64,000 bases of DNA. It comes from an uncultured Candidatus Saccharibacteria bacterium. GTDB taxonomy: Bacteria > Patescibacteriota > Minisyncoccia > Portnoybacterales > UBA2143. The notes under the pieces were generated by a model that worked only from the letters and a program-made list of their open reading frames with translations, was not told where the DNA came from and searched no databases. How positions within the stretch are numbered: the first letter of the stretch is position 1; every line of letters starts with the position of its first letter. Of this stretch, positions 1,901 to 30,446 are shown one piece after another. Made by a program: the position numbers and the translations under genes. Location: positions 726-64,725 of the forward strand of contig CAYQQO010000002.1 of assembly GCA_964420115.1 (NCBI GenBank), in the 5' to 3' direction.

Positions 1901-2812
1901 GTGAAGGATTTGGTTATTATTGGCGGCGGAGCGGCTGGGATTACGGCCAGTATTTACGCGGCCAGAAAATTTATTGATACATTATTAATCACTACTGATT
2001 TTATGGGTCAAGTCGGTGTTTCGGCTTGGATTGAAAATTATCCCGGATTTAAGAAAATTTCCGGCTTGGATTTAATTAAAAATTTTAAAGAACATCTGGA
2101 AATGTTTAAAATTGACAAAAAAACTTTTGAGACGGTTGAAAAAATAAAAAGAATAAAAGGCGGTTTTGAAATTATTACTGACGATGCTAATTGTAGGGCT
2201 AAATCAATAATAATTGCCAGTGGTAGCATACCAAAAAAATTAAAAGTTAAAAATGAAGATAAATTCTTAGGCAAAGGAATCTCTTATTGTGTTACTTGTG
2301 ATGAAACGGCTTTTAAAAATAAAATTGTAGCAGTGATTGGCGGCGGCAATGCCGGCATAGAGGGTGCAATTGAACTTAGCAGGTTTTGTGGGAAAATTTA
2401 TGTTTTGGAATGTTTGGATAAATTAGGAGCTGATAAAATACTGCGTGAAGAAGCTAAAAAAATAAGTAAAATAGAAATTATTACTTCTGCCGAAATAAAA
2501 TCATTTGAGGGTGATTTTGGCTTAGAAAAAATTATTTACATAGACAAAAAAACGAATAAGGAAAAAGAATTGGGAATTGACGGTTGTTTTATTGAGATCG
2601 GTGTGATGCCAAATACCAATTTTGTAAAAGAACTTTTATCTTTGAATAAAAAAGGAGAAATAATTGTTGATCCATATACATTAGAGACGAGCATTAAAGG
2701 AATATTTGCCGCCGGTGATGTTAATGATTTGCAGAGCAAGCAAATAGTTATTGCCTGCGGTCAAGGCGCTTCGGCCTTATTGTCCGCTTACAATCATTTA
2801 TTTAAAAATTAA
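1901..2812 (+). CDS. trxB: thioredoxin-disulfide reductase
   Basis: GTG start. FAD motif GGGAAG, redox-active CVTCD, NAD(P) motif GGGNAG and C-terminal AAGDV. Confidence 0.85.
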   Translation: MKDLVIIGGGAAGITASIYAARKFIDTLLITTDFMGQVGVSAWIENYPGFKKISGLDLIKNFKEHLEMFKIDKKTFETVEKIKRIKGGFEIITDDANCRAKSIIIASGSIPKKLKVKNEDKFLGKGISYCVTCDETAFKNKIVAVIGGGNAGIEGAIELSRFCGKIYVLECLDKLGADKILREEAKKISKIEIITSAEIKSFEGDFGLEKIIYIDKKTNKEKELGIDGCFIEIGVMPNTNFVKELLSLNKKGEIIVDPYTLETSIKGIFAAGDVNDLQSKQIVIACGQGASALLSAYNHLFKN

Positions 2813-2825
2813 AAAATATAAATAT

Positions 2826-4058
2826 ATGACTATGATTAAAAGAATATTATTTATTTTGCTATTTATCGCTTTACTTGTTCCCGCAAGTAGTGTTTTTGCT
2901 CAAGAAAAAACAAAGGATATTAATATCTATTTTTTCTGGGGCGAGGGGTGTCCTCATTGTGCCAAAGAAAAACCCTTTTTAGAAAAGCTGGAAAACAAAT
3001 ATCCGCAGGTTAATGTTCAATCTTACGAAGTTTGGGGAAATAAAGATAATCAGAAGCTATTAATTGATTTTGGTAAAAAATTAAATGCCAATATTTCGGG
3101 CGTGCCTTTCACGGTTGTCGGCGAAAAATATTTTATTGGCTGGTATGACGAGCAAAGCACCGGCAAGGCGATTGAAGATGCTGTTAAATGCGCTGAGCAA
3201 AACAGTTGTCGGGATATTGGCCACGAGATTTCAGCATTATCTGTCGAAAAAGATTTAAGCGAAAAAAATGAAGAAGACTGCGACTGCGAAGAAGAACAAT
3301 CACCTCTGTCGCAAAAAATAAAAGTTCCTCTTTTGGGAGAAATTGAAACCAAAAATTTTTCCCTGCCATTATTAACCATAGTTTTAGGCGCTCTGGACGG
3401 TTTTAATCCATGCGCTATGTGGACGCTGTTGTTTTTGATCAGTTTGCTTTTAGGTATGAAAAACAGAAAAAGAATGTGGATATTGGGAACGGCTTTTATT
3501 GTCGCTTCGGCTTCAGTTTATTTCGTATTTATGTCGGCTTGGCTTAACTTGATTTTGTTTATTGGGGTGGTTGTTTGGGTTAGAATTATTATCGGACTTA
3601 TTGCTCTTTTGGGTGGCGGTTACAATTTGAAGGAATATTTTACCAGCCCGAAAGCCGGATGCAAAGTAACAGGCACAGAAAAAAGGCAGAAAGTTTTTGA
3701 AAAATTAAAAAATATCACTCATCAAAAAAGTTTTTATTTGGCCCTAGGCGGAATAATTTTATTGGCTTTTGCGGTTAATCTGGTTGAGTTGATTTGCTCG
3801 GCCGGTTTGCCCGCGGTTTACACCCAAGTTTTGGCTTTGAGTAATTTAGCCAAGTGGCAGTATTATCTCTATATTCTGCTCTATGTCTTTATTTTCATGC
3901 TGGATGATTTGTTTGTATTTTTTGTCGCTATGACGACTTTGCGAATGACTGGCATAACCACAAAATATGCTCGCTGGTCGCGCTTAATCGGGGGGATACT
4001 GATGCTGATTATCGGTTTACTGCTGATATTCAAGCCCGGCTGGTTGATGTTTGGCTAA
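2826..4058 (+). CDS. secreted thioredoxin-fold domain fused to a CcdA/DsbD-like polytopic membrane domain
   Basis: Signal-like N-terminus, then a Trx fold (WGEGCPHC), an acidic Cys linker (EEDCDCEEEQ), and a membrane domain with GALDGFNPCAMW (CcdA-like TM1 SPC/NPC cysteine), a loop Cys and CSAGLPAVYT. The true start is probably ATG 2826 inside ORF 2751..4058. Confidence 0.55.
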   Translation: MTMIKRILFILLFIALLVPASSVFAQEKTKDINIYFFWGEGCPHCAKEKPFLEKLENKYPQVNVQSYEVWGNKDNQKLLIDFGKKLNANISGVPFTVVGEKYFIGWYDEQSTGKAIEDAVKCAEQNSCRDIGHEISALSVEKDLSEKNEEDCDCEEEQSPLSQKIKVPLLGEIETKNFSLPLLTIVLGALDGFNPCAMWTLLFLISLLLGMKNRKRMWILGTAFIVASASVYFVFMSAWLNLILFIGVVVWVRIIIGLIALLGGGYNLKEYFTSPKAGCKVTGTEKRQKVFEKLKNITHQKSFYLALGGIILLAFAVNLVELICSAGLPAVYTQVLALSNLAKWQYYLYILLYVFIFMLDDLFVFFVAMTTLRMTGITTKYARWSRLIGGILMLIIGLLLIFKPGWLMFG

Positions 4059-4424: not shown

Positions 4425-5003
4425 ATGGCTGGTTTTTTTAAGAAATACAAATATGATTTGGTTATTTTATTTATAATCATTTTATTTATTATTTTAGCTT
4501 TTTATAGCGACCAAAAATTTGGTTTTTTCTCTTCGCGGGAAGATTTTCAAAACTATGTGATGTCTTTCGGCCCTTTGGCGCCCATTGCTTTAATATTAAT
4601 TATTATTGTAGAAGTAATTGTTGCTCCTTTGCCTGGTTTTATCCCCGCTATTTCCGCCGGCTTTGTTTTTGGCTCTGTTTGGGGATCTGTCTATGCTTAT
4701 ATCGGCAATCTAATCGGGGGCTTAATTGTTTTCTTTTTGGCCAGAAAACTCGGCAGGCCCATTATTGGTAAGTTATTCAACCAAGAAAGGGTGGATAAGT
4801 ACAGCCGGGCTATTGGCAGACATGAAAATTACCTTCTTATTTTTTGCTTTATTCCAGTAGTGCCGACAGATATAATTGTTGCCGCTTTTGGTCTTTCAGA
4901 GATTAAAATAGGAAAATTTGTTTCTGTTTTAGCTGTTGGTTATATTTTTTATGTTGCAGTTATGAATATTTTCGGCGATTATTTAGCCAGCTTATATTTT
5001 TAA
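4425..5003 (+). CDS. DedA/TVP38 family membrane protein
   Basis: GRPIIGKLF...FIPVVPTDIIVAAFGLSEI pattern typical of SNARE-associated/DedA proteins. Confidence 0.75.
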   Translation: MAGFFKKYKYDLVILFIIILFIILAFYSDQKFGFFSSREDFQNYVMSFGPLAPIALILIIIVEVIVAPLPGFIPAISAGFVFGSVWGSVYAYIGNLIGGLIVFFLARKLGRPIIGKLFNQERVDKYSRAIGRHENYLLIFCFIPVVPTDIIVAAFGLSEIKIGKFVSVLAVGYIFYVAVMNIFGDYLASLYF

Positions 5004-22453: not shown

Positions 22454-23078
22454 AAGAGACAAAGCGCTCAAAGAAATAAAGGAAGAGGTAATTAAATGCC
22501 GGAAATGCCTTCTTTATAAATCAAGGGCTTTGCCGGTGATAGGCGAAGGCAACCATCGGGCAAAAATAGTTTTAATTGGCGAGGCGCCGGGGGCAGAAGA
22601 ATCCAAAGCCGGCCGTCCTTTTTGCGGGCAAGCAGGCAGGGTTTTAGATGGTTTATTAGAATCAGCTGGTGTAAAAAGAAGAGATGTCTATATTGCCAAT
22701 ATTTTAAAAGATAGACCGCCGCAGAATCGCAACCCCCTGCCTAGTGAAATTACTGCTTGTACCCCATATCTTTTAAGGCAGATTAATATAATTAAGCCGA
22801 AGGTAATTGCTGCTTTGGGTAATTTTTCAACCTCTTTTATTATGAAAGAATACGGCTTAGAAGAAAAAATAGAAGGGATTAGCAAAATTCATGGGAGGTT
22901 TTTTGAAGTTGGAGCTCCTTTTGGCAAGATAAAAATAGTCCCTCTTTATCATCCGGCGGTAGCGGTATACAATAATTTAATGAGAGATGTCCTTGTAAAT
23001 GATTTTAAAATTTTAAGTAAATTAAATGGTCAAAAAAAATATTCCAAAAGTAGTCGTCGGATTGTCAGGCGGAGTTGA
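22446..23078 (+). CDS. uracil-DNA glycosylase, family 4
   Basis: CRKCLLYKSRALPVIGEG...IVLIGEAPGAEESKAGRPFCGQAG motif set of family-4 UDG. Confidence 0.85.
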   Translation: MNKRDKALKEIKEEVIKCRKCLLYKSRALPVIGEGNHRAKIVLIGEAPGAEESKAGRPFCGQAGRVLDGLLESAGVKRRDVYIANILKDRPPQNRNPLPSEITACTPYLLRQINIIKPKVIAALGNFSTSFIMKEYGLEEKIEGISKIHGRFFEVGAPFGKIKIVPLYHPAVAVYNNLMRDVLVNDFKILSKLNGQKKYSKSSRRIVRRS

Positions 23079-24123
23079 TTCTTCTGTTTCTTTGTTGTTG
23101 CTTAAAAAACAAGGATATCAGCCAATTGGAGTTTCTTTAAAATATTCTGCTTGGCAGAGTAAAAAAAATAAAATTCAGGAAAATAGCTGCTGTTCTAAGG
23201 AATCTTTTTCTATTGCAAAAAAAGTGTGCCAAAAATTAAAAGTTCCTTATCATATTGTTGACTGCCGTGTTGATTTTAAGGAAAAAGTTATTGGTTATTT
23301 TATAAAACTTTTAAAAAAGAAAAAGACACCCAGTCCCTGCCTTATCTGCAATCGTTTAGTTAAGTTTAAGGAGCTGTTTACTTTTGCTAAAATGAGAGGC
23401 GCTGATTATGTGGCAACAGGCCATTACGCAAGAGTGAAAAGAAACAAGGGAGGCGCATACGAGCTTTTAAGAGCAAAAGACAAAACCAAAGACCAAAGCT
23501 ATTTTCTTTGTCTTTTAACCCAAAAACATCTTTCAAAAACAATTTTTCCTTTGGGTGGTTATACCAAAGAAGAGGTTTATCAGATTGCTAAAAAAGAAGG
23601 TTTTAAATTTTTTGAAAAAAAGAAACAAAGCCAGGATTTATGTTTTGTCTCTCGGCAATCAATGCCACATTTTTTAGAAGAAAAAATAGGTTTTCAGCTG
23701 GGAGAAATTATTGATAAAAAAGGAAATATTTTAGGCCGGCATCAGGGACTTCATTTCTACACCATAGGGCAGAGAAAAAAAATTTCTTTAGTTGGCGGAC
23801 CATGGTGGGTAATTGGCTATAATAAAAAGAAAAATCAGTTAATTGTCACCAATAACCAAAATGACCCAGCTCTTTCAGGTAAAAGTGTTATTCTCTCTAA
23901 TTGTCATTTTGTTTCCGGCTTTCCTCCTAAAAAATCAATTAATGTCAAAGCTAAGACAAGAGTTGGTCAAAAATTGGCAGAGGCAAAATTATACCCTCTT
24001 CAAAAAAAGAAAATTAAATTAGTTTTTGAGTCTTCCCAAAAAGCAATTACTCCGGGCCAATGGGCTGTTTTTTATAAGGATAATGTCTGTTTGGGGGGAG
24101 GGTTAATTGAAAAATCTTTTTAA
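23026..24123 (+). CDS. mnmA: tRNA-specific 2-thiouridylase
   Basis: PP-loop VVVGLSGGVDSS; conserved cysteines and length fit MnmA. Confidence 0.85.
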   Translation: MVKKNIPKVVVGLSGGVDSSVSLLLLKKQGYQPIGVSLKYSAWQSKKNKIQENSCCSKESFSIAKKVCQKLKVPYHIVDCRVDFKEKVIGYFIKLLKKKKTPSPCLICNRLVKFKELFTFAKMRGADYVATGHYARVKRNKGGAYELLRAKDKTKDQSYFLCLLTQKHLSKTIFPLGGYTKEEVYQIAKKEGFKFFEKKKQSQDLCFVSRQSMPHFLEEKIGFQLGEIIDKKGNILGRHQGLHFYTIGQRKKISLVGGPWWVIGYNKKKNQLIVTNNQNDPALSGKSVILSNCHFVSGFPPKKSINVKAKTRVGQKLAEAKLYPLQKKKIKLVFESSQKAITPGQWAVFYKDNVCLGGGLIEKSF

Positions 24124-25376
24124 GTGACCATAAAAAAAATTATTATTTTTCTTTTAATAGCCGCTTTTTTTCTTAATTTAGCTGATTTTGCTTTGGCCCA
24201 AGAAAGGCCGGTTCAAGAAAAGGAAGTTAATTTACACTTTTTTTACGGGAGCACCTGTCCTCATTGTAAAAAAGCAGAGGCATTTTTAGAGAAAATAGAA
24301 GCTAAATATCCCTTACTTGAAATAGAAAGATACGAGGTTTATGCCAATAAAGAAAATGCTCAGCTTCTTTCTGATATTTTTGAGTCCTGTCAGGAGCCCG
24401 GTCCGCCAAGAGTGCCAGCTATTTTTATCGGCGGCGAAGTGATTGTCGGTTATTTGGGCGACCAGACAACAGGTAGACAGATTGAAGAAGCTGTTAAAGA
24501 TTGTTTGGCAAATGAATGTCTTGACCCTTTGGCTAATATTAATGAGTGCGCTTTGTGCCAGTGCCAAGAAGGAGAAGAATGTCCTTGTCAGGAATGTGAT
24601 TGTCAGCCAAAAGAGATGGGAGACCAAATCATTGACTATCCAATAATAGGGGAAATTAACCTTTCTGAATTATCTCTGCCTGCTTTGACTGTTGTTTTAG
24701 CCAGCTTGGACGGCTTTAACCCTGCGCTATGTGGGTTCCCTTATTTTTAATCGCCCTTTTGATTAATGTAGGTTCACGCAGAAAAATATGGCTTATCGGC
24801 GGAACATTTATTCTTGTTTCTAGTATTGTTTACTACTTGCTTTTAACCGCTTGGCTTAATTTATTTTTAGCTATTAGTTATGTCACCGCTACCAGAATTA
24901 TTATTGGCACAGCTGCTTTATTAGCCGGTTTTTGGCAAATAAGAAAGTTTTTAAAATACAAACTAGGCGTTTGCGAGGTAACGCCTATTGGCACAAAGCG
25001 GCATGAGCGTTTAGTCCAAAAAATAAAAGAGGTGGTTAGTTCAAGAGCATTGCCAGCTAGCTTTTTGGGAGTAGTTGCTTTAGCTTTTGGCGTTAATATA
25101 ATTGAATTTTTTTGTTCAGCCGGTCTGCCTGCTGTTTACACCCGCATATTAAGTTTGAGCGATTTGGGCGCTTTAACTTATTATTTATATCTTTTGCTCT
25201 ACACTTTTGTTTTTATGCTTGATGATTTAATAATTTTTGGCATCGCCATAATAACGTTGCGGCAAATTGGTTTTACAGAAAAATATCAGAAGTGGAATAT
25301 GTTAATTGGCGGTCTTGTTATTCTTTTTCTCGGGCTGGTGCTTCTTTTCAAGCCGGACTTTTTAGTTTTTGGATAA
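24124..25376 (+). pseudogene. paralog of the thioredoxin::CcdA-like fusion, split by a -1 frameshift near 24721
   Basis: ORFs 24124..24750 and 24729..25376 align colinearly with the 2826..4058 protein: Trx CPHC, a Cys-rich linker CALCQCQEGEECPCQECDCQ, LDGFNP|CAMW and CSAGLPAVYT. Relative to the paralog, one nt is missing in AACCCTGCG (a C-tract), which breaks the frame exactly at the NPC motif. Confidence 0.5.
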
Positions 25377-25407
25377 AAGAGCAAAAGAAATTTTGCTCAA
25401 TTCGTTT

Positions 25408-25468
25408 AGCCCTGATCAAGGTTTTGCCTGCCCAGAAAAACGGCGAACCTTGGTCAGGGCTTTTTTTA
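25408..25468 (+). terminator. long-stem rho-independent terminator
   Basis: AGCCCTGATCAAGG...CCTTGGTCAGGGCT (14-bp stem) followed by TTTTTTT. Confidence 0.7.
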
Positions 25469-25524
25469 TTTTTATAATTTAAAAGTGGATTTTCAATAAA
25501 GTATTTTTTTGGTAGAATAAAAAT

Positions 25525-26871
25525 ATGTCTATAGATAGAAGTATTTTTAGAGCTTATGATATTCGGGGTAAATATCCCGACCAGATAAACGAAGAAACCG
25601 TTTATAAAATTGGCCGTGTTTTTGTTGGGTTTTTAAAAACAGACGAGGTGATTGTCGGCCGCGACGTCAGAGAATCCGCCCCGGCTCTTTTTGAATCTTT
25701 AGTTAGGGGGATTATTGAAGCTGGCGCTAATGTTATTGATATCGGGCAAGTCAGCATTGGCGCTTTGTATTTTGCTTCGGGTAAATTGGACAAACCGGCT
25801 ATTATGATAACCGGTTCTCATTTAGGGAAAGAGTATAATGGTTTAAAATTATGCCGCAACGGGGCAGAGCCGATTGGCCGGGGGGGGGAGCTGGAAGAGA
25901 TTTGCAAAATAGCTTATAAATATGAATCATTAGAAAAAAAAGAATCAGTTCAAGGGAGAGTTATTGAAGAAAATATTTTAAAGGATTATATTCCTCATGT
26001 TCTAAGTTTTGTTGATAAAAATTCTTTAAAGCCATTTAATGTGTCTATTGATGCTGGCAATGGTGTAGCCGGCAAAATAGTTCCTTTGGTTTTTAATGAT
26101 TTACCTTTTAAAATCGCCCCTTTGTATTTTGAACTGGATGGATCTTTTCCTCATCATTTACCTAACCCAAAAGAGCTGGCTAATTTGGCTGATTTACAAA
26201 AAACAGTTTTATCAGAAAAATCTGATTTAGGTATGGCTTTTGATGGCGATGGAGACAGAGTCTTTTTTGTGGATGAGAAGGGGAAAGCGATAAGAAGTTC
26301 TTTAATTATATCTCTTTTAGTTGAGGAAATTCTTAAGAGAAGTCCGGCAGTGAAGATAGTCTATAATGTTTCCTGCGGCAGAATTGTCAAAGAAACAATT
26401 GAAAAAAATGGGGGAGACCCAATTATAGAAAAAGTAGGACATTCTTTTATTAAGGCAAAAATGAAAGAATGCGGAGCTGTTTTCGGCGGCGAAGCGTCAG
26501 GCCATTATTATTTTAAAGAAAACTTTAGGGCGGAAAGCGGGGCAATCGTCGCTTTAATGGTTTTAGAAATTCTTTCTAAAAAAGAAAAGTCATTTTCAGA
26601 AATTTTAAAACCTTTTGATAAATATTTTGCTATTGAGGAGCATAATTTTAAGACGGAGGATAAGGATGGAGTTATTAGGAGGCTTGAGAAAAATTACGCC
26701 AACGCCGTAATTTCTCATTTAGACGGCTTGAGCGTTGAATGCCCCGACTGGTGGTTTAATATTAGGCCTTCCAATACCGAACCACTTTTGCGTCTTAATT
26801 TAGAGGCGAAGAATAAAAAAATATTGGACGATAAATTCGCCGAGATAAATTGGTTAGTAAGGAAGAAATGA
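25525..26871 (+). CDS. phosphomannomutase/phosphoglucomutase (alpha-D-phosphohexomutase family)
   Basis: Active-site loop ITGSHLGKEYNGLK, metal loop FDGDGDRVFF and sugar-binding GEASGHYYF. An extended -10 (TGgTAGAAT) lies upstream. Confidence 0.8.
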   Translation: MSIDRSIFRAYDIRGKYPDQINEETVYKIGRVFVGFLKTDEVIVGRDVRESAPALFESLVRGIIEAGANVIDIGQVSIGALYFASGKLDKPAIMITGSHLGKEYNGLKLCRNGAEPIGRGGELEEICKIAYKYESLEKKESVQGRVIEENILKDYIPHVLSFVDKNSLKPFNVSIDAGNGVAGKIVPLVFNDLPFKIAPLYFELDGSFPHHLPNPKELANLADLQKTVLSEKSDLGMAFDGDGDRVFFVDEKGKAIRSSLIISLLVEEILKRSPAVKIVYNVSCGRIVKETIEKNGGDPIIEKVGHSFIKAKMKECGAVFGGEASGHYYFKENFRAESGAIVALMVLEILSKKEKSFSEILKPFDKYFAIEEHNFKTEDKDGVIRRLEKNYANAVISHLDGLSVECPDWWFNIRPSNTEPLLRLNLEAKNKKILDDKFAEINWLVRKK

Positions 26872-26872
26872 C

Positions 26873-26899
26873 AAAACCGCTCAAAATGAGCGGTTTTTT
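26873..26899. terminator. bidirectional rho-independent terminator
   Basis: AAAACCGCTC-aaaat-GAGCGGTTTTTT between convergent genes. Confidence 0.8.
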
Positions 26900-26921
26900 A
26901 TTGTGACGGTTTTTACGGGGT

Positions 26922-27917
26922 CTATATCAGTCCCATTTTTTGTTTTACTTCCTTTATTGTTTTTTGGGCAATAGGCCTTGCTTTTTTAGCGCCGTTTTCT
27001 AATATTTTCTTAATTTTATCAGGGTTCTTTTCCAGTATTTTTTTCTTTTCCTGGAATGGTTTTAATTTCTTGATTATTATCTCAGCCAAATCATTTTTAA
27101 AGTCGCCATATCCCTTGTTTTTGTATTTTTTTTCAATCCTATCGTATGAAAGTCCAGAAAAAGACGAATAAATAGAGATTAAATTGGAAATAGCTGGTTT
27201 TTTAGGGCCGTGTTTGATTTCGCTCCCTGAATCTGTTACTGCTTTTTTAACTTTTTCTCTTATTACAGAAGGAGAGTCAGTTAGAAAAAGGCATCCTTGG
27301 GGAATGCTTTTAGACATTTTCTGGCTTGGTTCTGCCAAGGACATTATTCTGGCGAGTGTTTTATGGATGTCAGCTTCAGGAACAACAAATATTTTGCCAT
27401 GTTGATTATTGAATTTTCTGGCAATAGTCCTTGTTAGTTCTATGTGCTGTTTTTGGTCTTCGCCGACAGGGACTAAATTAGTTTTGTAAAGTAATATATC
27501 AGCGGCCATTAAAACAGGATAATTAAAAAGGCCCATATTAATATTTTTTTTGAATTGCTTTGCCTTGTCTTTAAGTTGGGTCATTCTTTCCAATTCAGCA
27601 ATAGGAGTGATTGTATTTAAAAGCCAAGTTAATTCTGTGTGTTCGGGAATATGTGATTGGACAAAAAGAATGCATTTTTTAGGGCTAAGCCCGACTGCTA
27701 AATAGGTGGTTGCCAGATCAAAAATATTTTTCTGCATATTTGGTGATGAATCAGGATTGGTTAAGGCGTGCAGGTCAACAATGCAAAAAATTGAATCATA
27801 TTTATTCTGAAGGGCAACCCAGTTTTTAATAGCCCCTAAGTAGTTGCCAATATGGATAGAGCCGGTTGGCTGAATGCCGCTAAATATTCTTTTTTTCATT
27901 TTTTTCTTTTTTGGCAA
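26922..27917 (-). CDS. trpS: tryptophan--tRNA ligase
   Basis: HIGH-type motif TGSIHIGN and KMSKS; class I TrpS size and architecture. Confidence 0.9.
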   Translation of the reverse strand: MPKKKKMKKRIFSGIQPTGSIHIGNYLGAIKNWVALQNKYDSIFCIVDLHALTNPDSSPNMQKNIFDLATTYLAVGLSPKKCILFVQSHIPEHTELTWLLNTITPIAELERMTQLKDKAKQFKKNINMGLFNYPVLMAADILLYKTNLVPVGEDQKQHIELTRTIARKFNNQHGKIFVVPEADIHKTLARIMSLAEPSQKMSKSIPQGCLFLTDSPSVIREKVKKAVTDSGSEIKHGPKKPAISNLISIYSSFSGLSYDRIEKKYKNKGYGDFKNDLAEIIIKKLKPFQEKKKILEKNPDKIKKILENGAKKARPIAQKTIKEVKQKMGLI

Positions 27918-28623
27918 ATGCCTTAATGATCGGTTTTAAATCGCCGTCAATAATTTTGTCCAATTGATGCCACGATTTATTAATTCTGTGGTCGGTGATT
28001 CTGTTCTGGGGGAAATTATATGTCCTTATCTTTTCCGCGCGCATAGAAGAACCGATTTGCTGGCGTCTTTGGTCTCCCAAGCGAGCCATTTCTTCAGCTT
28101 TTTTTTTTGCCAATAATCGCGCCCTTAACACTTTCATTGCTCTTTCTTTGTTGGCTTGTTGTGTTCTTTCTTCCTGACAGAAAACCATTATGCCTGTTGG
28201 TCTATGGGTAATTCTGACAGCTGATTCGCGGCGGTTGACATATTGGCCGCCTGGCCCCGAAGCGCGCAAAACATCAATTTTAATATCGTTCGGGTTAATT
28301 TTTATTTCCGTCTCGCTTGCTTCCGGTAGAACTACCACTGAAGCAGTGGAGGTATGGGTGCGTCCTGATTTTTCAGTTGTCGGGATGCGTTGGACGCGAT
28401 GGACGCCGGCCTCCTGCTTTAGTTTTTCATAAGCATTATCTCCCTTTATTTCAAAAACTATTTCCCTATAACCATTCAGGGCTGATTGATGGCTTTCCAG
28501 TTTTGTTGTTTCCCAGTTGTTTTTTTCGGCAAAACGGGAATACATCCTGAAAAGATTAGCGGCAAAAAGAGCAGCTTCTTCACCGCCTGTCCCAGCCCTT
28601 ATTTCTATAATAGTCCCCTTCAT
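27880..28623 (-). CDS. prfA: peptide chain release factor 1 lacking N-terminal domain 1
   Basis: PTT tripeptide in the ...[17 protein letters not shown] context (RF1 PxT rather than RF2 SPF) and a GGQ motif. The protein starts at the region equivalent to E. coli RF1 residue ~100. The start overlaps the rpmE stop. Confidence 0.8.
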
Positions 28624-28859
28624 TTTTGTTTCTTTGGTTTAAGGCCCAGTTTGCCACTGCGCTTGGCTAATCTTTTTCTGAATTTTTCTACCTGGCCTGT
28701 TTCAATAATTTTTTCTTTGCCAGTGTAAAAAGGATGGCAGGCAGAGCAAATTTCTACGCTCATCTCCGGCTGGTGGGTAGAGCCAATTTTAAAAACAGCC
28801 CCGCAGGCGCACTTAATTTTAGCGTCGTTATAATATTTGGGATGAATATCTTTTTTCAT
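28620..28859 (-). CDS. rpmE: 50S ribosomal protein L31
   Basis: [10 protein letters not shown]...CACGAVF...[10 protein letters not shown]: classical zinc-ribbon L31. Confidence 0.9.
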
Positions 28860-28908
28860 TGTTTTTTATCATAGCAGATTAGGATTAAATAGGCAAGTAT
28901 AAAAGGCG

Positions 28909-28937
28909 TTGACAAAAGAGCGCGAGCAAAGTATATT
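28909..28937 (+). promoter_or_regulatory. sigma70-like promoter TTGACA-N17-TATATT
   Basis: Read directly; oriented toward the small ORF at 29014. Confidence 0.45.
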
Positions 28938-29013
28938 ATTAAAGGTTCTTAAAACAAGATGTAATAGATGAGTAAGATAGCAGGTAAATAACAACGAAAA
29001 AAGGAGGAGGAGA

Positions 29014-29175
29014 ATGGGGCTTGCGACTGCAAAGAAGAAAAAGAGAACAGCGAGAAAAAAGAAAACAAAAGAGGTTAAAACAGGAACTAGGACGGGGACA
29101 AAAAAGATAAAACAGACAAGGGTAAATTTGCGCTGTGAGCCAGTCATTTGTTTGGCTGGCTCTTTTCTTAACTAA
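29014..29175 (+). CDS. candidate small, highly basic protein (53 aa)
   Basis: GGAGGAGGAGA precedes ATG 29014. Translation: MGLATAKKKKRTARKKKTKEVKTGTRTGTKKIKQTRVNLRCEPVICLAGSFLN. Flanked by its own promoter and terminator. Confidence 0.3.
   Translation: MGLATAKKKKRTARKKKTKEVKTGTRTGTKKIKQTRVNLRCEPVICLAGSFLN
29137..29169 (+). terminator. rho-independent terminator
   Basis: GAGCCAG-(12-nt loop)-CTGGCTC followed by TTTTCTT. Confidence 0.55.
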
Positions 29176-29180
29176 AAATA

Positions 29181-29208
29181 TTGCCATAATTTTGGAATGT
29201 GCTATACT
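29181..29208 (+). promoter_or_regulatory. sigma70-like promoter TTGCCA-N16-TATACT (rpsB promoter)
   Basis: Read directly, 15 nt upstream of the probable rpsB start. Confidence 0.5.
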
Positions 29209-29222
29209 GTTTTTACAATAAA

Positions 29223-29987
29223 ATGATAAAAAAACTCATTAAGAAAGAGAAAACTAAAAAAGAAAACAAACCCGCCTCTGGCGGTTCTGCTTCTGGCGGG
29301 AAGGCAGAGGACATAGAAAAGCTTATACCCAGCCTGGAAGAAATGCTAAAAGCAGGGGCTCATTTTGGGCATCGGACCACCAAATGGCATCCTAATATGG
29401 AAGAGTATATTTTCACCCAAAGGGAAAATGTCCATGTGATTGATTTAGAAAAGAGCAGGGAGCAGATGGCTGATGCCTTAAAGTTTCTTAGAAAGATTAA
29501 AGCACAAAAAGGTGTGATTCTTTTTATTGGAACAAAGACAGTGGCCAAAGAAATTATCAGCCAGTCAGCAAAAGAATGTAAAATGCCTTATGTCGCAGAA
29601 AAGTGGGTTGGCGGCACATTAACAAATTTCAAAGTGATCTCTGACCGGTTGGAATATTTTAGAAACTTGAAAAACAAGGAGAAGACAGGGGAATTGAAAA
29701 AATATACTAAAAAAGAACAGCACGATTTTAGAGTAGAATTGGATAAACTTGAAAAACAATTTGGCGGAATTAAAAATTTAACTAAATTGCCTGATGCTAT
29801 GATGGTTGTCGATATTCATAAAGAAAAATTGGCTGTCAAAGAAGCAGGGATGATGGGGATACCGGTAGTCGGACTATGTGATACAGACGCAGATCCTTCT
29901 TCTATTGACTATCCTGTCCCGGTCAATGATGATGCGATTACTTCTTTAACGTTAATATTTAAGATGATCGTTGATGCGTTAAAGTGA
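29223..29987 (+). CDS. rpsB: 30S ribosomal protein S2 with a K/E-rich N-terminal extension
   Basis: MLKAGAHFGHRTTKWHPNMEEYIF... is the S2 core. The ORF track starts at 29199, but ATG 29223 is the more likely start. Confidence 0.9.
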   Translation: MIKKLIKKEKTKKENKPASGGSASGGKAEDIEKLIPSLEEMLKAGAHFGHRTTKWHPNMEEYIFTQRENVHVIDLEKSREQMADALKFLRKIKAQKGVILFIGTKTVAKEIISQSAKECKMPYVAEKWVGGTLTNFKVISDRLEYFRNLKNKEKTGELKKYTKKEQHDFRVELDKLEKQFGGIKNLTKLPDAMMVVDIHKEKLAVKEAGMMGIPVVGLCDTDADPSSIDYPVPVNDDAITSLTLIFKMIVDALK

Positions 29988-29996
29988 TTAAAATAT

Positions 29997-30446
29997 ATGA
30001 TTTCAGCCCAACAAATTAAAAATCTTCGTCAAAAAACAGGCCTTTCAGTAATGGATTGTAAAAATGCCCTGGAAGAAGCAGAAGGCAATGAAGAAAAGGC
30101 AGTAAAGATTTTAGAAAAAAAAGGCAAGTCAGACGCGATTAAGAAAGCTCAGCGGGAAGCTAAAGAAGGGTTAATTGAGGCCTATGTTCATAGCACTGGT
30201 AAAGTTGGAGTAATTCTGGAATTGAATTGCGAGACCGACTTTGTGGCAAAAAATAATGATTTTAAGGAATTGGCCCATGATATTGCTATGCACATTGCGG
30301 CAATGGCTCCCGAAGACGAAGGAGAACTTTTATCACAGCCATTTATTAAAGACGAACAGAAAAGTATTAAGGATTTGATAGAAGAAACTATTGCTAAATT
30401 AGGGGAAAATATTAAGATAAAGAAGTTTGTTCGTCTGGAAATATGA
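29997..30446 (+). CDS. tsf: elongation factor Ts (short form, 149 aa)
   Basis: N-terminal IKNLRQKTGLSVMDCKNALEEAEGNEEKA UBA-like motif of EF-Ts, followed by a single core domain. Confidence 0.8.
   Translation: MISAQQIKNLRQKTGLSVMDCKNALEEAEGNEEKAVKILEKKGKSDAIKKAQREAKEGLIEAYVHSTGKVGVILELNCETDFVAKNNDFKELAHDIAMHIAAMAPEDEGELLSQPFIKDEQKSIKDLIEETIAKLGENIKIKKFVRLEI

Follow-up and report, generated by a model that had tools for sequence, protein, structure and literature searches.

In the window analysed here (the whole 64,000-nt stretch of DNA), two overlapping open reading frames on one strand, 24124..24750 and 24729..25376, are the halves of a single gene. We consider it likely that a real 1-nt deletion, carried by the dominant genotype, recently inactivated this gene, the mnmA-linked member of a pair of paralogues, and left an ordinary recent frameshift pseudogene. 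We infer that the lesion exists in the organism and did not arise in the reads and, from conservation, that function has been lost. In annotation, the two deposited 'hypothetical proteins' would then be halves of one inactivated gene and not separate families. The features discussed are collected in the table below.

The two ORFs overlap by 22 nt, as seen in the ORF listing and on direct reading, and, seen from the upstream one, the downstream one is read in frame -1 (equivalently +2). The DNA at their junction, GAC GGC TTT AAC CCT GCG CTA TGT GGG, becomes AAC CCn TGC GCT ATG TGG when one base is inserted after 24722, and a single ORF of 417 aa results. From residue 20 to 417 the repaired protein aligns with the intact 410-aa paralogue (copy 1) at 42% identity (E 2e-104), which bears out the preliminary description in its claim that the two ORFs are colinear with that protein. 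The hallmarks it had named, CPHC (residues 45-48), the linker, LDGFNP/CAMW and CSAGLPAVYT, are all found in the repaired protein, and the split gene (copy 2) is, as it had proposed, a divergent paralogue of copy 1 broken by a 1-nt deletion within the invariant DGxNPCAMW. Where copy 1 reads AAT CCA TGC GCT, copy 2 reads AAC CC- TGC GCT (over a longer stretch, AATCCATGCGCT and AACCCTGCGCT respectively), and the deleted allele string at 24715-24725 is AACCCTGC, its intact counterpart being AACCCNTGC. Restoring one base does give a full-length protein, of 417 aa and not the 416 aa first stated. One nucleotide is indeed missing, but its loss from a C homopolymer was an assumption: the homopolymer now present at the lesion is just CCC (24720-24722), and the Pro codon at this site varies among orthologues (CCC, CCG, CCA or CCT), the nearest of which reads CCT TGT, so that the lost base need not have been C. 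C from CCCC and T from CCTT are equally possible. Past the lesion, the 5' fragment runs on out of frame as NP-ALCGFPYF to a TAA stop, and the invariant C201 is encoded by neither ORF.

Table. Features of the split gene, of its intact paralogue and of their surroundings in the window.
Feature	Coordinates	Strand	Basis or remark
TrxB-like pyridine-nucleotide disulfide oxidoreductase, CVTC, directly upstream of copy 1	1901..2812	+	Pyr_redox_2, E 1.6e-42
Intact paralogue (copy 1), 410 aa, same architecture	2826..4058	+	alignment with copy 2
mnmA (tRNA 2-thiouridylase), directly upstream of the split gene	23026..24123	+	neighbour conserved in the paralogue clade of copy 2
5' fragment, 208 aa: signal peptide, Trx/Grx-fold domain, Cys-rich linker, first half of TM1	24124..24750	+	ORF reading
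Predicted signal peptide, residues 1-25 (...FALA/QE)	24124..24198	+	sequence and alignment reading
CPHC active site (C45, C48) of the Trx-fold domain	24256..24267	+	Cys pair in 127 of 129 homologues (2 gaps)
Cys-rich acidic linker CALCQCQEGEECPCQECDCQ, residues 141-160	24544..24603	+	Cys columns filled in 28-39 of 129 homologues; pLDDT 53-58
Frameshift site AAC CC^TGC	24718..24725	+	Pro200 codon without its third position, compared with eight intact homologous sequences
3' fragment, 215 aa: second half of TM1 and TM2-TM6, starting at conserved Met203 (CAMW)	24729..25376	+	-1 frame; AF2 helices 200-416
L206P, CCC codon	24738..24740	+	sole Pro at this position; Leu in 126 of 129; five codons past the deletion
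Invariant C284 codon (GVC), K/R-rich TM3-TM4 loop	24972..24974	+	127 of 129
FFCSAGLP motif in TM4, with invariant C331 at 25113-25115	25107..25130	+	aligns with the CcdA WTPCxGP region
Intrinsic terminator hairpin and U-run, ending the mnmA/fusion-gene unit	25408..25468	+	-33.3 kcal/mol, z -6.0, 0 of 200 shuffles as stable

Searching with the repaired protein returned more than 5000 relatives, the best being 68% identical, and the best 120 of these are nearly all single uninterrupted proteins of ~370-440 aa, mostly from Patescibacteria/Parcubacteria. The closest, P0001 (412 aa, 68% identity), is intact and shares with the window the gene order MnmA, fusion gene, ..., TrpRS, short release factor, L31, S2 and EF-Ts, and we therefore take it to be the orthologue. 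The string AAY CCN TGY GCN ATG TGG is uninterrupted in eight intact homologous sequences (L002-L006, L009/L010 and copy 1), and when the repaired protein was compared by tblastn with all 90 fetched loci, none of the 88 other loci was split at the lesion point. Retrieval of these loci was partly biased, one of its two patterns demanding an intact DGFNPCAM while the second did not; loci obtained from a genome-contig scan and from exact protein look-ups were independent of the intact-motif pattern, and the scan of GTDB genome contigs yielded five Patescibacteria homologue loci, three full-length, two cut by contig ends and none interrupted. Copy 1, looked up by exact sequence among the collected contigs, had no record, and literature searches on SRR7048227 and on the family in Patescibacteria returned nothing relevant. 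The preliminary description had suggested looking for homologues split likewise, as a two-gene design would predict; with none among the 88 other loci and an intact syntenic orthologue, the interruption is a lesion and not a two-gene arrangement. As in a frameshift pseudogene, the frame is broken relative to intact syntenic orthologues, and a one-base repair restores full-length colinearity. Separately, one other member among the 88 loci is frameshifted, L017 (59-1151, on a 1.5-kb metagenome contig), whose frame changes between residues ~324 and ~352.

The lesion appears to be young. Among 129 sequences (~35-70% identity), DGxNPCAMW, C45/C48, C284, E328, C331-S-x-G-x-P and D367-D368 are invariant or nearly so (DGxNPCAMW, C284, C331 and DD367-368 in 127-128 of the 129), and the window copy keeps them all. 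At 51 columns conserved to at least 95% it deviates once, at L206P. Within the closest clade it deviates five times, the second highest count of 38, most members having 0-3 deviations; such counts were used in place of dN/dS, which was dropped because the nearest orthologue is 68% identical in protein and synonymous sites are saturated. No stop interrupts the 215 codons downstream of the lesion. Since the frame is almost undecayed apart from the unique L206P, these comparisons indicate that the gene was inactivated very recently and that constraint has at most begun to relax, although an open, nearly undecayed 3' frame would equally fit an error or continued expression. Of the three alternatives offered earlier (sequencing error, recent pseudogenisation and phase variation), recent pseudogenisation fits best.

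The strongest competitor is a sequencing or consensus error, in which the organism has an intact gene and the reads or their assembly lack one base of it. We hold this to be unlikely, though it deserves more weight than any of the other alternatives. It would account for the retention of all invariant family residues and for the 215 open codons, and the sequence is known from one population or sample only: clustered at 90% identity, each half stands alone, with no records besides those in NCBI and Logan, and the frameshift region, sought as an exact pattern with 0-3 additional bases in JGI metagenome contigs, was not matched. Against it, window 23948..30376 recurs at 100% identity over its 6429 nt, with the gene split alike, on a Logan contig from SRA run SRR7048227 that also encodes the 215-aa product. 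The Logan assembly was made independently with a different assembler, but both assemblies may derive from one read set, so that the reads may share a systematic error, or an intact allele may exist as a minority. The site itself is a run of only 3 nt, whereas A and T runs of at least 6 nt, up to 10 nt, number in the hundreds across the window, which also has a G9, and the listed A, T and G runs of 8-10 nt lie by their coordinates inside long ORFs (mnmA, a phosphoglucomutase (PGM)-like gene, a release factor); a homopolymer sequencing error is therefore unlikely. The adjacent or overlapping ORF pairs that were tested proved to be distinct, complete genes, none other being broken, and with the long runs falling within long ORFs this argues that the assembly is not indel-prone. 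Nor does an indel error explain the unique L206P 15 nt downstream. The second assembly with the same string and the long runs inside ORFs thus weaken the sequencing error proposed earlier. As a separate observation, the G9 at 25880-25888, within the phosphoglucomutase-like ORF 25525-26871, is the longest G/C run of the window, and slippage would be more plausible there than at the CCC of the split gene.

That the split is functional seems improbable. The two ORFs would be expressed separately, giving an exported thioredoxin that is anchored in the membrane and receives its electrons in trans from the intact paralogue, and a membrane remnant translated from the ATG at 24729. This ATG (Met203) lies 19 nt upstream of the stop of the 5' ORF, so that coupled re-initiation is conceivable, the 5' product retains a complete Trx domain and a hydrophobic tail, the genome has an intact paralogous membrane domain, and some DsbD-type systems are known to have their domains encoded by separate genes (PMC3322552). 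However, no homologue is split at the lesion point, the arrangement is unique to one genome, no obvious Shine-Dalgarno sequence precedes 24729, and the invariant C201 is absent from both products.

Still less credible is leaky or programmed -1 ribosomal frameshifting, whereby some full-length protein is made after peptidyl-tRNA(Pro) has moved back from CCU onto the CCC that overlaps it. After AAC CCU such a slip would bring TGC GCT ATG TGG into frame and rebuild the invariant FNP-CAMW with no residue changed, and the downstream frame is intact; but the marks of a programmed -1 site, a heptamer, downstream structure and conservation, are all absent. There is no X XXY YYZ heptamer in GGC UUU AAC CCU GCG, shuffled versions of the 126 nt around and downstream of the site fold more stably than the real sequence (z +1.56), and the arrangement is shared by none of the 88 other loci. 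The idea of 'hungry codon' slippage was rejected, since GCG, the codon in the A-site, is used 9.6 times per 1000 and is not rare. Were the deletion real and the gene still in use through such a slip in the P-site, a very doubtful combination, frameshift efficiency would set the amount of the redox transporter, and a Patescibacterium would here recode in -1 at a single codon, with no structure to assist. Least probable is phase variation, raised earlier, in which slipped-strand mispairing in a C-tract toggles the gene on and off: the lesion does lie in a short homopolymer (CCC, or CC and T beside T), but where runs of about 7 or more drive slipped-strand switching at contingency loci, the run here is only 3 nt, no long simple-sequence repeat occurs at the switch point, the window has a single C run of at least 6 nt, the third base of the Pro codon differs among orthologues so that no tract is conserved, and the lost base need not have been a C.

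In the 79 loci in which the immediate upstream gene was considered, it encodes a signal-less WCxGC thioredoxin in 21, MnmA in 11-12 and a DUF134 protein in 7. The thioredoxin, of 89 aa (MKVLKFGAVWCSGCLVM...) and without signal peptide, is conserved upstream in L024, L034, L038, L054, L060-L067, L074, L077, L080, L085, L089 and L090, and is likely a dedicated cytoplasmic electron donor; no gene for an 89-aa WCxGC thioredoxin was found within the 64-kb window. The small DUF134 protein, predicted to bind DNA and found upstream of the fusion gene at seven of the 79 loci (including L037, L039, L046, L070, L072 and L073), may be a dedicated regulator of it. Downstream, no conserved partner was found among the neighbours of the family. 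Other features of the region may be recorded here. A DedA/VTT-domain membrane protein (4425-5003, +) is encoded downstream of copy 1, and the terminator that follows the split gene has a 13-nt loop and was missed by a simple terminator scan. The release factor of the window (27880-28623, minus strand) and those of L009 (4321-5049) and L010 (3992-4720) have only 242-247 aa, the PCRF profile being matched from position 102 on, with the N-terminal ~100 residues missing and an L31 gene abutting upstream; since the orthologue of a related genome is equally short, this looks like a lineage trait and not a truncation artefact.

The N-terminal part of the repaired protein has the makings of an exported redox domain. 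The AF2 model has a helix at residues 2-19 followed by a low-confidence stretch (20-31), and with the predicted signal peptide the Trx domain is predicted to lie outside the cytoplasm. Pfam Glutaredoxin matches residues 43-107 (E 2.8e-7), and in the AF2 model the order beta-alpha-beta-alpha-beta-beta-alpha, with the CxxC at the N-terminus of helix 1, is that of a Trx/Grx fold. The middle dipeptide of the CxxC is variable in the family (PH, PY, PN, SN, PV, SH or PR). The Cys-rich linkers had been said to look like metal-binding segments, which is not supported as a family property: the Cys cluster occurs in about 28-39 of the 129 homologues, the linker is modelled with low confidence, and the pattern CxCxC...CPCxxCxC is limited to the clade closest to copy 2, other members having short Cys-free linkers or a second Trx domain in its place. 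The linker, which does not belong to the family core, may act as an accessory arm in redox chemistry or metal binding. In L045 (3001-4581) and P0118 (537 aa), a second Trx/Grx domain replaces the Cys-rich acidic linker.

The membrane domain is harder to place. In full-length searches of Pfam and NCBIfam the membrane region had no match at E<=0.1, and Pfam DsbD_TM (PF02683) and DsbD_2 (PF13386) matched none of 18 membrane-domain members at E<=10; no PDB sequence matched it, fold searches returned Trx matches only and none to a solved CcdA structure, and an AlphaFold model of the domain alone reached a pLDDT of 53, too low to be of use. When the 129-sequence family profile was aligned by hhalign with a 105-sequence CcdA profile, the probability was 92% (E 6.7e-7, 165 columns, TM2-TM6), compared with 0.2-0.3% for reversed-profile controls and 50% with shallow alignments. 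Aligning TM1 only puts the NPC of the family on the SPC of CcdA, with an E of 0.31 that is not significant alone, and hhalign of TM1-3 against TM4-6 gave no signal of an internal 3+3 repeat (probability 0.5%). Of the conserved cysteines, C201 (NPC, TM1) and C331 (FFCSAGLP, TM4) are invariant in 127-128 of the 129 and lie within predicted helices 200-215 and 310-331, and by the positive-inside rule the TM3-TM4 loop is predicted to be cytoplasmic. To regard the membrane domain as a remote CcdA homologue is justified on these profile alignments, and the term 'CcdA-like' used earlier can stand for remote homology, but no Pfam or NCBIfam model detects it. Since the 240-residue membrane domain has no such model, the family is poorly annotated, its thousands of Patescibacteria members being labelled merely 'glutaredoxin', 'thioredoxin family' or 'hypothetical'; the link now drawn joins this domain, with its three invariant cysteines and a small cytoplasmic thioredoxin that recurs as partner, to the CcdA/DsbD electron transporters. 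It is this under-annotated gene family that is modestly interesting, and not the frameshift itself.

For the intact protein we propose that the signal peptide would direct the Trx/Grx-fold CxxC domain to the outside of the cell, where it would stay tethered to the six helices of a membrane domain distantly related to CcdA/DsbD. If the analogy with CcdA/DsbD holds, electrons would pass from NADPH to TrxB, a small Trx, the membrane Cys pair, the tethered external CxxC and finally envelope substrates, the membrane pair being presumably C201 (TM1) and C331 (TM4), perhaps with C284 of the cytoplasmic loop. The direction of electron flow and the role of each Cys are extrapolated from known systems, and this scheme draws on one remote profile match together with analogies of motif and context. 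The deletion would remove C201 from both products and separate the exported Trx domain, ending in a truncated TM1 (..LDGFNP-ALCGFPYF), from a remnant of 5.5 helices; since these are parted, no single polypeptide could carry the relay. Transcription of mnmA and the fusion gene up to the terminator would still take place. The intact, 42%-identical paralogue beside the TrxB-like gene probably makes the loss tolerable. Patescibacteria generally lack cytochromes c; an envelope-reducing pathway in them might serve, for example, the repair of oxidised surface proteins or the support of pili and adhesins of episymbiosis.

Comparison with known systems begins with DsbA, since the active-site motif of the E. 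coli protein, CPHC, is also the tetrapeptide of copy 2, and both proteins are exported (predicted, for copy 2). The likeness goes little further: the modelled fold is a plain Trx/Grx unit of ~100 aa (residues 35-130) without the inserted helical domain, the XX dipeptide is not conserved in the family, and the family's partners point to a reductive and not an oxidative pathway. Against Pfam DSBA the score was 13-14 bits, under the 25.6-bit cutoff, and membership of the DsbA family is not indicated.

With CcdA/DsbD the family shares six predicted TM helices, a TM1 Cys that follows Pro (NPC as against SPC in CcdA) and a TM4 Cys followed by Gly and Pro (CSAGLP as against CxGP). An extramembrane Trx-fold partner is common to both, and genes for cytoplasmic thioredoxin or TrxB are neighbours in the window family, which agrees with the description of CcdA/DsbD in PMC3322552. 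It differs in its third invariant Cys, in the TM3-TM4 loop, and in invariant motifs of its own, DGxNPCAMW, AWLN and MLDD. Canonical CcdA proteins with an N-terminal exported Redoxin exist, and the fusion architecture is therefore of a known kind. These natural Trx-fold::CcdA fusions (P0301, P0335 and P0345, ~430 aa) have the same order, an exported Trx-fold domain and then a CcdA-type membrane domain, but combine a TlpA/ResA-type Redoxin (AhpC-TSA/TlpA-like) with a canonical, Pfam-recognised DsbD_TM, whereas the protein of the window would combine a minimal Grx-like fold with a divergent membrane domain. In E. coli DsbD, a periplasmic redox domain is tethered to a membrane domain with a Cys pair that is fed by cytoplasmic thioredoxin (PMC3322552). 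The protein of the window resembles it in having a tethered, predicted extracytoplasmic redox domain and a putative membrane Cys pair; but the membrane part of DsbD (alpha-beta-gamma) counts eight TM helices where six are predicted here, and its two further domains, alpha (immunoglobulin-like) and gamma (Trx, C-terminal), contrast with one Trx domain, at the N-terminus, in the protein of the window.
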